A DNA stretch of 64,000 nucleotides from Chrysomallon squamiferum (taxonomy: Eukaryota; Animalia; Mollusca): the NCBI GenBank assembly GCA_012295275.1, contig CM022676.1, forward strand, positions 4,464,001 through 4,528,000, written 5' to 3'. Positions 2,954 through 26,724 of the stretch are shown here, piece by piece. The translations under genes were made by a program, and so were the position numbers. Numbering within the stretch: position 1 is the first letter of the stretch; each line of letters opens with the position of its first letter. Under the pieces are notes generated by a model, which saw nothing but the letters and a program-made list of their open reading frames with translations, made no database searches and was not told where the DNA came from.

Positions 2954-4154
2954 ATGAGTGCTAAGTTATTCTGTGTGTTCGTGTTACTGGGATCTCTAAG
3001 TTACGTACAAGGTATGTATTTTATATTCCTGCCAAAAGGCAGACGTGTCATAAACTATAGTATAGCATAAATTATGGAATATTCTGATACAATTAAATAC
3101 AGAACACAGAACAAAATTATATTAAATTATATTAATTAATAGATTTATTTGTAGATTTATTAATTACATTTACCATATTATAATTAGGCTCTTGCTGTTG
3201 TTTGTATGTTCCCGAGTGATACATATTTACAAACTGTGAAATCTAAATTGAGTCGAAATTATGTTTCGTTGACTAAGGTAAAAAACTATATGCATGATTG
3301 TGTGATTTGAAGTTTTGAAATATCTGTATTAAAGCATTAGGCAATAACATAACATTCCATGACATAAGATAACGTTAGGATATGAGAGTCGATAATGTAA
3401 CATAATGTAATAAAATTTAAAGTATAATAATAATAATAATAATAATAATAATAAATAAATAAATAAATTAATTAATTAATAAATAAATAAATAAATTAAT
3501 AAAAATAACACAAAATGTGAATGTAATTATAAAATATGTATTTAATTTACTTTTGAATTTTGTTTGATTATTATTATTTTAAACAGAAGTTTGGTTTTTC
3601 GTAATAACAACATCAGACAGGAATGTAATTGTAGGATCACCTTTTACTTTTACCTGTCGAGGATATCCTGTTTCTATAATTTCCTGGTTTGAGAATAACA
3701 CAAAATACAGGATGGATATAGGAAGACATGGTCAATGTCTTTATCATAGTAATCCTCCAAAAGAATACACTTTTAAGTGTTCAGATGACCTAAACACTCT
3801 CACAATAAAATCAGTGAAACTCAGTCAACATGGAACAGTGTGGAGATGTGGTGACTTTCTACCACGCAGCAATGAAATAAAACTGGAAGTGAGACGTAAA
3901 ATTAACTTATTTATTATTAATGTTATTACTGTACCTATTAGATGTTAAAAAAAAAGAAGGAAATAAAACTGGAAGTAAGAGGTAAAATTAAATTGTTTAT
4001 TTTAAATGTTATTACTGTACCTATTTTACGTTAAATTTTTATGTTTCGGAATTTTTTCCACACACTCACAAGTTTTATAGAAACGAAAATTTCATTGCAT
4101 ATTTCAGATAATCAGACTGCGCCAGCGGCTGTACAACAACATACAGAGATGTGA
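2954..4154 (+). CDS. IgSF gene A: signal peptide + single V-like Ig domain + short tail, no TM (predicted secreted, 137 aa)
   Basis: Exons 2954-3011 ([19 protein letters not shown], donor GTATGT), 3587-3895 (EVWFF...FTFTC...SWFENN...GTVWRC...EIKLEVR) and 4108-4154 (HNQTAPAAVQQHTEM*). All junctions are phase 1 and in frame; exons are paralogous to genes B and C. Confidence 0.75.
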
Positions 4155-5120
4155 TAAAGTTTGAAAATAAATGAAACTGTTGTCATGAATGTTAAAGAAG
4201 GAAACAAGTTCTATTTGTTAATCATGTACTTCTTGAAACTGTTTTATGAATACTAACAGGATATTAAATTGTTAAAAGTTTTTTTTTACTAATATACAAG
4301 GCCTTCAGTTTCCACAATGACACAAGATTTGAACTGTGTAAACAGGTACCTATTTAAATATTGACACACGGATAGATTAACAAAAAGAAGCATTTGATCA
4401 ATCTCAGTAACACTGGTCTCATTCGCACATGTTTCATCTTTTAATTTCTTATATTTCCTTCAGATGTAAGATCCTTCACGTCATGAAAGTCTCTATTTTC
4501 TTGTATAACAGTAACATGAGAAATGAAATTCCTGGATCACAATGGCAGATTAAATCTATATTTACAAGTGTTTGTTTTTTTTGTGTTTTTTTTTATACTA
4601 AGAAGAGTTTCCTTTTCACGGCTTCGTATACCATATCTATCCAAGGTGTTCCGTTTTTTGGTGAAATTTCTGAATTTTTCATATTTTTATTCTCTATTTA
4701 CATTGAGTGAAGCATAATTCTATCTTATGATTTTGTAAAAGATGGACGAGGGTTCGGGCGTACGAATCGATTTTTATTTCAATTTTAAAAAAAAAAAAAT
4801 TATATATTATAATAAACGGCTTGGACTGGATTTAATTTTTTCGTTTTTTGTTTTTTTACACAATGTTTCTCCGTCTGCATGTTTCCTGTTAAATGTCTTT
4901 CTCTGTTCTGTTAGATTTTATTGCGAATTTTTGCTCATGTAACAAAGACCGAAATGATAGAAAATGGGTTAAAGGAACTTTCAGCAAGCATTTGGAACGG
5001 GAGACAGGACAAGGGACGTAATGAAGGGAACTGCTGTAAGAACTAAACTAGTGTGTACTATTTCTCTGCTAATTATGTTGTCTTTTTACATCATATACCA
5101 GGTTTCTTTCTGTGTTTATA
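4060..5120 (+). repeat. Direct copy of the terminal exon and 3' flank of gene B (about 18660-19790)
   Basis: Shared strings such as GAAACGAAAATTTCATTGCAT, CATTTGATCAATCTCAGTAACACTGGTC and GGACGAGGGTTCGGGCGTACGAA at both places. Confidence 0.9.
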
Positions 5121-24600: not shown

Positions 24601-26724
24601 TTATTATTATTATTATTGTAATTGCTATTCTTATTGTTATAGTTATTCTTATTGTTATAGTTATTCTTGTTATTGTTGTTGGTATTGTTGTTGTTGTTTG
24701 GCAGACTATAAGAAAACTGCATAATGTTTAAATGGTACAAGCTTACCCTATTTTTACTATAATTAGTTTCTTACTTACAATGTACAGTCAAATGAAGTGT
24801 TTTTTTAGCAGTTTGGTTCGTATCTGGATTTTCAGCCGTACACACATAGAGACCTGTCTGTGATCTATTAATATCAGCCAATGACAGAATGCTTGTGTTA
24901 CTTATGATGTTATCTGCGATCTTCCATTGATAATTACACGTGATGAAACACGTCGCCGAACAAGACACTGTGACGTCACTTCCTTCCACAGCAGTCAGAA
25001 CAGTCGAAGTATTCAGTTTGAGTGATGTTCCAGGACCATCTGACAAAAAAAAACAAAAAAAAAAAGACATTATCAACATCATCACCATCATTATCGGCAG
25101 CTTCATCATCATTTTATTCATATTTTCGTTTTATTCCTACTCATGGTAGAAATTATAGGTTACTCGTATTGTTAGTTATGGATGTTGTCGTCGAAGTGAT
25201 GGTGATAGTGTAGTGTCTGAGTTGTTGCTGTTGGTACTATAATTATTACTAATGTCACAACTATTTAATTATTTATTTATTTATTTATTTATTTATTTAT
25301 TTATTTATTTATATATATTTATTTATTTTCCTAATATTTTTGCTGATATATTTAGTTTATTGTTTTGTCATCATTAACAGTACATATTTCATAATAATAA
25401 ATAAAACTCATTTTCTCTCTCACATCCAGTTTTATTTCATTGCTTTATTTATCATCCATTAGGACCGGTAATAATATTAAGAATAAACAAGTTAATTTTA
25501 CCTCTCACTCCCAGTTATATTTCATAGTTTTTAATCATGTTACAGGTACAGTAATAATATTAATAATAAAAAAGTTAATTTTACCTCTCACTTCCAGTTT
25601 TATTTCATTGCTTCCTGAAGAAAAACCACCACATCTCCATACTGTTCCATGTTGACTGAGTTTCACTGATTTTATTGTCAGAGTGTGAATATCAGCTGAA
25701 CAGGTAAAAGTGTATTCTTCTGGATGTTTACTAAGAAAATGACATTGACCGTATCTTCCTGCTTCATTCATCATGTATTCTGTGTTATTCTCAAACCAGA
25801 AAATTACAGGAGCAGGAGCTCCTCGACAGGTAAAAGTAAAAGATGATCCAACAACTGCGTATTTGTCTGATGTTGTTAAACTGCGATACTGACCTTAAAT
25901 TTAAAATAATAAAAAAAAAAATTCAAATAATATTAAATGCATTTTATATAATAACATTCTTGATAAGTTTTATGTTATTTTTATTTATTTATTTATTTAT
26001 ATACTATTATTATTAGTATGATTATTATTAGTATTATACTTTACGTTTAATTACTTTATATTACATTAATACGATACGCCATATTATGGACTCTCATATC
26101 CTAATGTTATGTTATGTTATCTTATGTTATTGTCTCATGTTTTAATACAGATAAGTTTCAAAAATTCAAATCACGCTATTACGCATATATTTTATACATT
26201 AGTCAACGAAACATAACTTCGACTCAGTCAAGATTTCACAGTTCCTAAATGAAATGGACTCAGGCACAGAAAAATGGCTCCCTCTCAAAAGACAGACAGA
26301 CAGCCCATAATACGGACACGCCATTTGACAGACAAAACTCTTTATTGGGTCATATATCCTGTACACCCCTGACTGATTTGATGGTATGCTCCATTCTGTT
26401 CATACAAGCAAGAGGGAGAGCCTAATTATAATCTGGTAAATGTAATTAATAAATCTACAAATAAATCTGTGAATAAATCTAATTTTATATAAGTTTGTTC
26501 TATTTTCTGTATTTAGTTGTATCAGACTATTCCATAATTTATTACATGTAATATTCAAGGTAAACGGCAGGTCATTAGTAAATGCACTCAACCGTGTCTT
26601 CTGTTGTTTATGCTAGACTATTCTATATGAGAAGCCTGTCTTTTGGGAGGAATATAAAATACATACCTTGTACGTAAATTACACATCCCAGTAACACGAA
26701 CACACAGAATAACTTACAACTCAT
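21649..26724 (-). CDS. IgSF receptor gene C: leader, V-like Ig, two C2-like Ig, membrane-proximal Ig, TM, tail with Tyr motifs (491 aa, intact)
   Basis: Exons 26724-26667, 25893-25585, 25039-24779, 24428-24168, 23976-23698, 23344-23228, 22420-22390, 22106-22060, 21761-21649 sum to 1476 nt, open throughout, with GT-AG sites. CEACAM-like DGP/YGPD domain starts. Tail reads ...PVYYNV...[23 protein letters not shown]. Confidence 0.88.

Follow-up and report, generated by a model that had tools for sequence, protein, structure and literature searches.

A variable-tipped immunoglobulin receptor family in the mollusc Chrysomallon squamiferum: loop variation among three germline paralogues and the case for selection

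What makes one end of an immunoglobulin (Ig) domain vary between neighbouring gene copies while blocks of its framework hardly change? The question is raised by a stretch of 64,000 nucleotides (nt) from the mollusc Chrysomallon squamiferum (GenBank assembly GCA_012295275.1, contig CM022676.1, positions 4,464,001 to 4,528,000 of the forward strand), hereafter the window, in which three related genes, here called A, B and C, each carry a leader exon followed by an exon for a V-set-like Ig domain. Our preferred reading, to which we assign a probability of roughly one half, joins two propositions. The first is that A, B and C are germline paralogues, one intact (C), one disrupted (B) and one shortened (A), within a mollusc-type multigene family whose members are single-pass membrane receptors. 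The second is that the loops at the tip of the V domain, the equivalents of complementarity-determining regions (CDRs), vary mainly through selection for new binding specificities, the variants probably also being shuffled by gene conversion.

A preliminary description of the window had quoted a set of framework blocks and, for each copy, a set of differing loop strings; all were found where it had placed them. Each of the quoted motifs is found once per copy, within open frames near 3.6 kb (+), 10.7 kb (+) and 25.8 kb (-), and a tblastn search of the window with exon translations returned V exons at A, B and C only. The three exons, recognized by motifs and alignment (and for C also by AlphaFold and Foldseek), lie at 3587..3895 (+) in A, 10678..10989 (+) in B and 25585..25893 (-) in C, and measure 309, 312 and 309 nt, respectively; in the DNA alignment all have an AG acceptor, a GT donor and phase 1-1. 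The limits first given for the variable region, 3587 and 25893, are the first bases of exons A and C. Some 0.6-0.8 kb upstream of each V exon, three-way alignment reveals a 58-nt leader (signal peptide) exon that is nearly identical in all copies and ends in a GT donor in phase 1 (A, 2954..3011, +; B, 9835..9892, +, differing from C at 1 of 58 positions; C, 26667..26724, -), with start codons at 2954, 9835 and 26724. Because each copy has its own leader exon, A is not an alternative exon of B.

An AlphaFold model of the V domain, built from 16 sequences (predicted local distance difference test score, 85.9; predicted template-modelling score, 0.79), has nine strands by DSSP, and in this predicted structure both the C' and C'' strands are present (residues 37-44 and 49-52). 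Among its PDB matches by Foldseek, listed to rank 50, all are antibody light- or heavy-chain variable domains (VL/VH), nanobodies or T-cell receptor (TCR) V domains (TM-scores normalized to the query, 0.55-0.70), a ranking that is biased because PDB is rich in antibodies. The B-strand cysteine, C-strand tryptophan and F-strand cysteine (C22, W32 and C87 in the numbering of C) occur in A, B and C and in 8 of 8 V domains from the vent snail Gigantopelta aegis; a second cysteine pair, C50-C64, occurs in all three window copies and in seven of the eight G. aegis domains. With Pfam, the V-set family (PF07686) matched none of the three N-terminal domains; Ig_3 scored 27.9, 18.2 and 26.4 bits, below its cut-off of 30, the family 'ig' exceeded its cut-off for C alone (23.9 vs 21.8), and matches to I-set were sub-threshold.

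A profile of A, B and C yielded 40 matches at E≤1 among PDB sequences, the best being a kappa VL domain at a marginal E=0.015. In this marginal but collinear alignment, with CDRs delimited by the Kabat ranges, the variable segments coincide with CDR-L1, CDR-L2 together with the residues just ahead of it, the DE loop and the first part of CDR-L3. The G strand (model residues 96-98) and the end of the domain both lie inside the V exon, which is spliced in phase 1 to the next Ig exon; because the whole domain, including the G strand, is contained in one exon, V-J joining is not needed. A rearranging antigen receptor with a J-supplied G strand was rejected on the same ground. The nearest clusters in the ESM Atlas, which serve as leads only (scores 0.95-0.96), are unnamed, about 109 residues long and most commonly from Mollusca.

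Where in this domain does the variation lie? Loops were defined by DSSP on the AlphaFold model, independently of the variation. Of the 104 aligned codon columns of the V exon, 55 are invariant. In the BC, C'C'', DE and FG loops 20 of 25 columns are variable, compared with 29 of 79 in the remainder of the domain (Fisher p=2e-4), while the loops at the opposite end of the domain (AB, CC', C''D and EF) vary in 12 of 29 columns (p=0.006 against 20 of 25). The variation is beyond chance and polar, and is not a plain loops-versus-strands effect. In canonical V-domain topology, BC, C'C'', DE and FG form the membrane-distal end. The strong differences that the preliminary description had seen in the loops were borne out, with replacements enriched in the equivalents of CDR1, CDR2, DE and CDR3. 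Its 'near-fixed framework' is accurate for the quoted blocks and too strong for the rest: 29 columns outside the loops vary, and variability over the first 12 residues matches that of the loops. It had proposed asking whether the variable residues cluster on one surface; in the model the variable columns gather in these four predicted loops, and that the loops make up one end is taken from the canonical topology.

The same distribution is seen in the second species. Entropy across the eight V domains of G. aegis averages 1.13 bits for these loops vs 0.53 elsewhere (p=1e-4), and per-column variability is correlated across both species (Spearman 0.49, p=1e-7). Loop variability is a real, non-random, family-wide property. 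Within the window, B and C had been described as far more alike outside the V exon, and nucleotide differences confirm it: 61/309 in the V exon, vs 1/58 in the leader, 24/257 in the second Ig exon (Ig2), 21/277 in the membrane-proximal one (Ig3), 5/117 in the transmembrane (TM) exon and 365/3946 (9.2%) in the upstream flank.

Several comparisons argue that selection has driven the loops apart (values for the pairs A-B, A-C and B-C are given in that order). Nonsynonymous divergence in the loops (0.41, 0.28, 0.53) exceeds the divergence of the adjacent intron (0.23, 0.15, 0.20; p=0.007, 0.025 and 2e-6) and in all three pairs also that of the distal intron (0.09-0.11). The loops evolve faster than these neutral proxies. 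Pairwise ratios of nonsynonymous to synonymous divergence (dN/dS) are 1.82, 1.02 and 4.19 in the loops vs 0.63-0.87 in non-loop positions. In a joint maximum-likelihood codon model with a shared synonymous rate, the ratio (omega) is 2.12 for the loops vs 0.56 for the rest; a loop omega of 1 is rejected (p=0.02), as is equality with the rest (twice the log-likelihood difference, 25.7). Between B and C, the V exon has dN 0.25 and dS 0.17, compared with dN 0.06-0.08 and dS 0.15-0.16 in Ig2 and Ig3, and a McDonald-Kreitman-like contrast of nonsynonymous to synonymous changes gives 51:10 in V vs 30:18 in Ig2, Ig3 and TM combined (p=0.016). Divergence of the V exons under coding constraint is supported: in neutral simulations only 2-3% of exons are stop-free after 55-69 substitutions, and 12% after 30, and the V-exon indels are multiples of three in 3 of 3 cases vs 9 of 31 in the flank.

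A second set of results weighs against this reading. The pairwise test of loop dN/dS reaches p<0.05 in only one of the three pairs, and whole-exon dN/dS is 0.88, 0.88 and 1.39. When the loops are given their own rate, their omega falls to 1.31, a value of 1 is retained (p=0.60), and the excess is absorbed by a 1.8-fold rate at all sites, synonymous and nonsynonymous alike; the diversifying selection proposed in the preliminary description is partly supported, with a shared rate but not with a separate one. That description had also named two outcomes that would speak against it. One was a loop dN/dS at or below 1, and here the pairwise values lie above 1 while the own-rate estimate is not distinct from it. 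The other was a V exon no more diverged than the adjacent intron, and this is what we find: V-exon divergence is 0.223, 0.178 and 0.205 vs 0.227, 0.145 and 0.201 in the 330 bp upstream, although part of that intron is AT-rich mini- or microsatellite of low complexity that cannot be aligned reliably. Constraint is weak in general, as the high omega outside the loops (0.56-0.87) shows. Of the three copies, A and B are not intact receptor genes, the former lacking most exons and the latter being disrupted, and some of the divergence may therefore be neutral. Top and bottom of the domain were assigned by canonical V-domain topology. Site patterns are mosaic: in the stretch from CDR1 to CDR2, B is most often the copy that differs (21 sites vs 7 and 6), and it is also the outlier in an intron patch. 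Along the flank, divergence between B and C varies from 1% to 19% among 200-bp segments (chi-square p=1e-15), heterogeneity that would be expected from ongoing conversion between inverted copies.

A simple relaxation of constraint is disfavoured, because loops held neutral at the exon's own rate fit worse (log likelihood -773.13) than loops with free rate and omega (-769.94; twice the difference, by hand arithmetic, is 6.4, 2 degrees of freedom, p about 0.04). A partition by the segments quoted in the preliminary description gives omega 1.09 and a relative rate (rho) of 4.2; being a posteriori it is biased, and we did not use it as evidence.

Mosaic gene conversion and selection account equally well for the pattern seen with a separate loop rate, and three sequences cannot separate selection from the import of divergent tracts. 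The competing account that survives best, which we regard as possible but on balance doubtful, is one of mosaic ancestry: in the loops and some of the adjacent intron, short tracts were copied from divergent family members, or escaped the homogenization of the flanks, and weakly constrained loops tolerated them, with no adaptive selection involved. Gene B is an inverted duplicate of gene C, the two lying tail to tail in an inverted duplication (6293..30198, no strand assigned; self-blastn and B-C alignment) whose 5' arms (6293-11086 and 30198-25495) align over 4897 columns with 85% identity. In favour of imported tracts, loops with their own rate show an excess at all sites (rho 1.8-2.3, omega about 1.1-1.3); B and C differ by 9.2% across the 4-kb flank but by 21% over the 275 bp preceding the exon and by 20% within the exon itself; B stands apart in separate patches; the flank is very uneven; and a leader with one difference in 58 sits beside a V exon that is 20% divergent. 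However, the divergent intron patch is of low complexity and may reflect slippage or an alignment artefact, and dS between B and C in the V exon (0.17) equals that in Ig2 and Ig3 (0.15-0.16), so that the V exon as a whole is not older. Moreover, conversion accounts for the origin of variants, not for their persistence at the tip loops in two species.

The receptor to which this domain belongs is best seen in gene C, on the minus strand, where nine AG/GT-bounded exons read by coordinates give an uninterrupted conceptual product of 491 residues: signal peptide, V and three more Ig domains, followed by a TM segment and a tail that ends in YSSL-x8-YDVI. Downstream of the leader and V exons lie a 261-nt Ig exon, 'Ig1b' (24779..25039, located by tblastn, exon boundaries and a Pfam Ig_2 match of 33.8 bits vs a cut-off of 27), the 261-nt Ig2 exon (24168..24428; tblastn, Pfam, alignment and open frame) and the 279-nt Ig3 exon (23698..23976; alignment, open frame and an RNA contig joint). 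The 117-nt TM exon (23228..23344) is defined by B-C alignment and open frame. The cytoplasmic part comprises a 31-nt mini-exon running from phase 1 to 2 (22390..22420), a conserved AG/GT island in the B-C alignment that the open frame requires; a 47-nt exon (22060..22106; open frame and a weak tblastn match to the G. aegis tail); and the last coding exon (21649..21761; alignment and open frame), which holds the YSSL-x8-YDVI motif and the stop. An immunoreceptor tyrosine-based activation motif (ITAM) consists of YxxL/I, 6 to 8 residues and YxxL/I in a cytoplasmic tail, and the tail of C has this spacing. Each half of the tandem motif also matches the pattern of an inhibitory motif (ITIM). Ig, TM and short tail exons are all that C contains; it has no fibrinogen-related exon, and neither have A and B.

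Gene B, on the plus strand, retains exons that align with those of C: Ig2 (11604..11863, 260 nt), Ig3 (12288..12566) and TM (14173..14289). Compared with C, its Ig2 has lost 1 nt at two places and gained 1 nt at a third, which breaks the frame, with a stop at residue 163; tblastn finds no Ig1b exon in B, and the acceptor of one cytoplasmic exon is also lost. B is open to its TM exon only if Ig2 is skipped. Downstream, tandem repeats of ~1.07 kb (15559..18604, +; self-blastn, alignment and translations) each carry a copy of an ITAM-like exon of 99-105 nt in phase 1-1. The first of the three copies (15991-16089) is degenerate, while the other two (17115-17219 and 18196-18300) are intact, keeping YSSL-x8-YD[VI]L and a GT donor; they read YSSL-x8-YDVL and YSSL-x8-YDIL. 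If all of these exons were spliced in, the tail would contain several ITAMs in series, reminiscent of CD3-zeta.

Gene A lacks all exons from Ig2 to TM. A candidate terminal exon (4108..4154, +), homologous to the 3' exon of B and C and without its tyrosine (ITAM) part, lies 212 nt beyond V, and leader, V and terminal exon together form a leader-V-stop reading of 137 residues without a TM segment. In all three copies the last ~25 nt of the V exon and its donor are repeated about 70 nt into the intron (3975-4025, +, in A; about 11050-11090, +, in B; 25461-25532, -, in C). Between the two donors the frame of B stays open (open reading frame, ORF, 10671-11144), and use of the second could add about 30 residues.

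Are A and B, then, simply dead, and do their V exons differ through drift after loss of function? The broken Ig2, missing Ig1b and lost cytoplasmic acceptor of B, the absence of the Ig2-to-TM exons from A and the whole-exon dN/dS of 0.88-1.39 would all agree with neutral decay, an explanation that we consider improbable. All three V exons remain open with intact splice sites, an outcome seen in 2-3% of simulations (12% at half the changes), and their indels are all in frame. Variation is non-uniform (p=2e-4) and is mirrored in G. aegis, omega in the strands is 0.40-0.64, and loop divergence exceeds intron divergence, beyond what drift yields. The genes themselves also retain readings: B up to its TM segment when Ig2 is skipped, and A as a complete secreted-type product of 137 residues.

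If selection for binding specificity is indeed the main cause, the V tip would bind ligand; receptors clustered by the ligand would then be phosphorylated at the tandem YxxL/I motif and recruit a tandem-SH2 kinase. Birth-and-death duplication, combined with concerted evolution of the flanks, would supply a germline repertoire in which flanks and leader evolve together while the V loops diversify, and the V-only product of A, if made, may act as a soluble form. Selection for varied binding, helped by sequence exchange between the copies, is likely, but three copies are too few to prove it. A more speculative idea, to which we give a slim chance, explains the open, spliceable V exons of A and B by a role as cassette donors: gene conversion, germline or even somatic (in immune cells), would transfer their loops into intact ITAM receptors such as C, a mollusc version of pseudo-V or FREP-like diversification acting on a membrane V-set receptor. 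The slimmest chance of all goes to a code for homophilic or self-recognition, with a tip that varies for paralogue-specific adhesion as in Dscam, protocadherins or Hydractinia Alr and not for foreign ligands: a hypervariable N-terminal domain and the architecture are common to such systems, and the G. aegis relatives are automatically named after adhesion molecules, but the conserved ITAM-like tail and the immune-related family expansion reported in the available text of the G. aegis genome paper (PMC7895826) fit immune-type signalling better.

How large is the family? The nearest proteins to the V domain come from G. aegis (57-59% identity) and carry the NCBI names 'uncharacterized', 'CEACAM1-like' and 'CEACAM5-like'; they have the same architecture as gene C. 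Their tail motifs are YSSL-x8-YEGL and YSSL-x9-YDVL, the former being present in P0002 and P0094, the two with a complete tail. In the available text of the G. aegis genome paper, 'CEACAM5' is one of the immune-related families listed as expanded (PMC7895826), and our literature search found, in the portions of papers available, no description of loop variability in this receptor family. An exhaustive protein search returned 75 proteins at E≤1e-3, 16 at E≤1e-10 and 2 at E≤1e-30, with remoter relatives in Dreissena and Haliotis. A protein homologue search found no relative near the query length and one among longer proteins, and a G. aegis V domain used as query retrieved four proteins. In metagenomes, a protein pattern scan for further copies gave 512 pattern matches, none of them confirmed, and a 29-nt framework pattern gave no matches. 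At the left edge of the window, positions 1-1278 (+) are an inverted match, at 91% identity, to the 3' flank of C (19801-21110), and another family member probably ends just to the left.

Short-read contigs from three runs of one organism were compared with 22000-25960, that is, 3961 bases of gene C. At 90-99% identity, 552, 884 and 652 contigs aligned, piled on the exons, with up to 13-20 distinct contigs at single exon positions, which indicates many paralogues or alleles; summed contig depth is no measure of copy number, and stretches without RNA cover are no sign of silence. Many contigs break exactly at 25612, the boundary of the FG loop, and continue with other loop sequences; in runs X1 and X9, other members continue from 25609-25612 (-) with a different CDR3-equivalent sequence. 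One RNA contig encodes tyrosine in place of the F-strand cysteine. In another (run X9, 23700-23976, nine differences), the end of an Ig2-type exon is joined directly to base 23976; hence a paralogue, rather than A, B or C, is spliced at the predicted sites. A further joint in an RNA contig runs from 22096 to 24782, which we leave uninterpreted, the letters between being unread and the family large.

The window as a whole is AT-rich (~30% GC up to 56 kb), with many microsatellites and split genes, which marks it as metazoan DNA, and it contains several other coding regions. Just past the far end of C's 5' flank (~30.2 kb) ends a different gene, whose large terminal ORF (30207-31037, -) encodes tyrosine-rich and acidic repeats and a SAM-like end (Pfam SAM_1, 20.7 bits; cut-off 23), with possible upstream exons to ~33728. 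An exon at 37300-37581 (+) weakly matches ribosomal protein L17 (24.9 bits; cut-off 27) and possibly belongs to a mitochondrial L17 gene. At 42749-43597 (+) lies a single-exon ORF with a DnaJ domain (82 bits). From 55665 to 64000 (+) GC content rises from ~27% to 46-55%, and very long open frames appear, with many Q, N, S and P codons; five ORFs scanned at 53.5-64 kb, including the large ones at 55.6-64 kb, had no Pfam match at E≤0.01. Together with a basic helix-loop-helix-like stretch at ~53.6 kb, these long frames probably form one large transcription-factor-type gene.

Among known systems, the genes described here are filed as a germline-diversified receptor family of the Ig superfamily (IgSF), of the CEACAM, KIR or NITR kind. 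The likeness to the vertebrate CEACAM family (paired CEACAM1/CEACAM3-type receptors) is close in organization: a leader exon, one exon for a V-type N domain, C2-type Ig exons, a TM exon and short exons for a cytoplasmic part bearing tyrosine motifs, in a species-specific multigene expansion that includes truncated or soluble members. In CEACAM, too, according to the available parts of the relevant papers (PMC8860441, PMC7042247, PMC5112662, PMC2110893), the N-domain exon is the fast-evolving part and gene conversion occurs among paralogues. The 491-residue conceptual product of gene C follows this plan from leader to ITIM/ITAM tail. CEACAM N domains, however, are not known to have the canonical intradomain disulfide, whereas the V domain here keeps the canonical B-F cysteine pair and a second pair, and the lineage is a protostome one. 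Sequence kinship with CEACAM beyond the Ig fold appeared in none of the 40 PDB sequence matches at E≤1, and orthology was rejected on this ground and on that of the canonical cysteine pair found in all copies.

The KIR/LILR, SIRP and fish NITR families are birth-and-death clusters with variable distal Ig domains on conserved stalks and ITAM/ITIM signalling. The present family resembles them in being multigene, with a variable membrane-distal Ig domain and a conserved stalk; it differs in having no orthology with them and in carrying the ITAM-like motif in the receptor's own tail, multiplied in B by tandem exon duplication. Closer in phylogeny are the FREPs of Biomphalaria, mollusc IgSF defence proteins that, in the part of PMC11999971 available, form a diversified gene family with an immune role. 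Mollusc origin, IgSF domains and diversification are shared; FREPs, however, are secreted and end in a fibrinogen domain, whereas gene C has a TM segment, a tyrosine tail and no fibrinogen domain. Membership of the FREP family was rejected, as no C-terminal fibrinogen-related domain was found in A, B or C. In the oyster protein CgIgIT2, also a mollusc type-I receptor, several Ig domains are combined with a TM segment and a tyrosine motif of the immunoreceptor kind (PMC11999971, available part); it is, however, the product of a single characterized gene, with five Ig domains, and the available text reports no CDR-like variability at a V-set tip among paralogues.

With antibody and TCR V domains, finally, this domain shares its fold, as judged by Foldseek, and the placing of its variability at the equivalents of CDR1, CDR2, hypervariable region 4 and CDR3, but here the whole domain, G strand included, occupies one exon and the variation is between germline paralogues. 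V-set domains with variability at the CDR positions, coupled to ITAM-type signalling, are thought to be the ingredients of vertebrate antigen receptors, and to our knowledge well-documented protostome examples are scarce. Concertedly evolving flanks next to a divergent V exon are part of the interest of this family, which makes a germline repertoire of variable-tip receptors tractable in a lophotrochozoan and includes natural soluble (V-only) and multi-ITAM variants. It is expanded in at least one vent snail, where the available text lists it only as 'CEACAM5' (PMC7895826). It may show how invertebrates, possibly symbiont-bearing ones, widen recognition without rearrangement.

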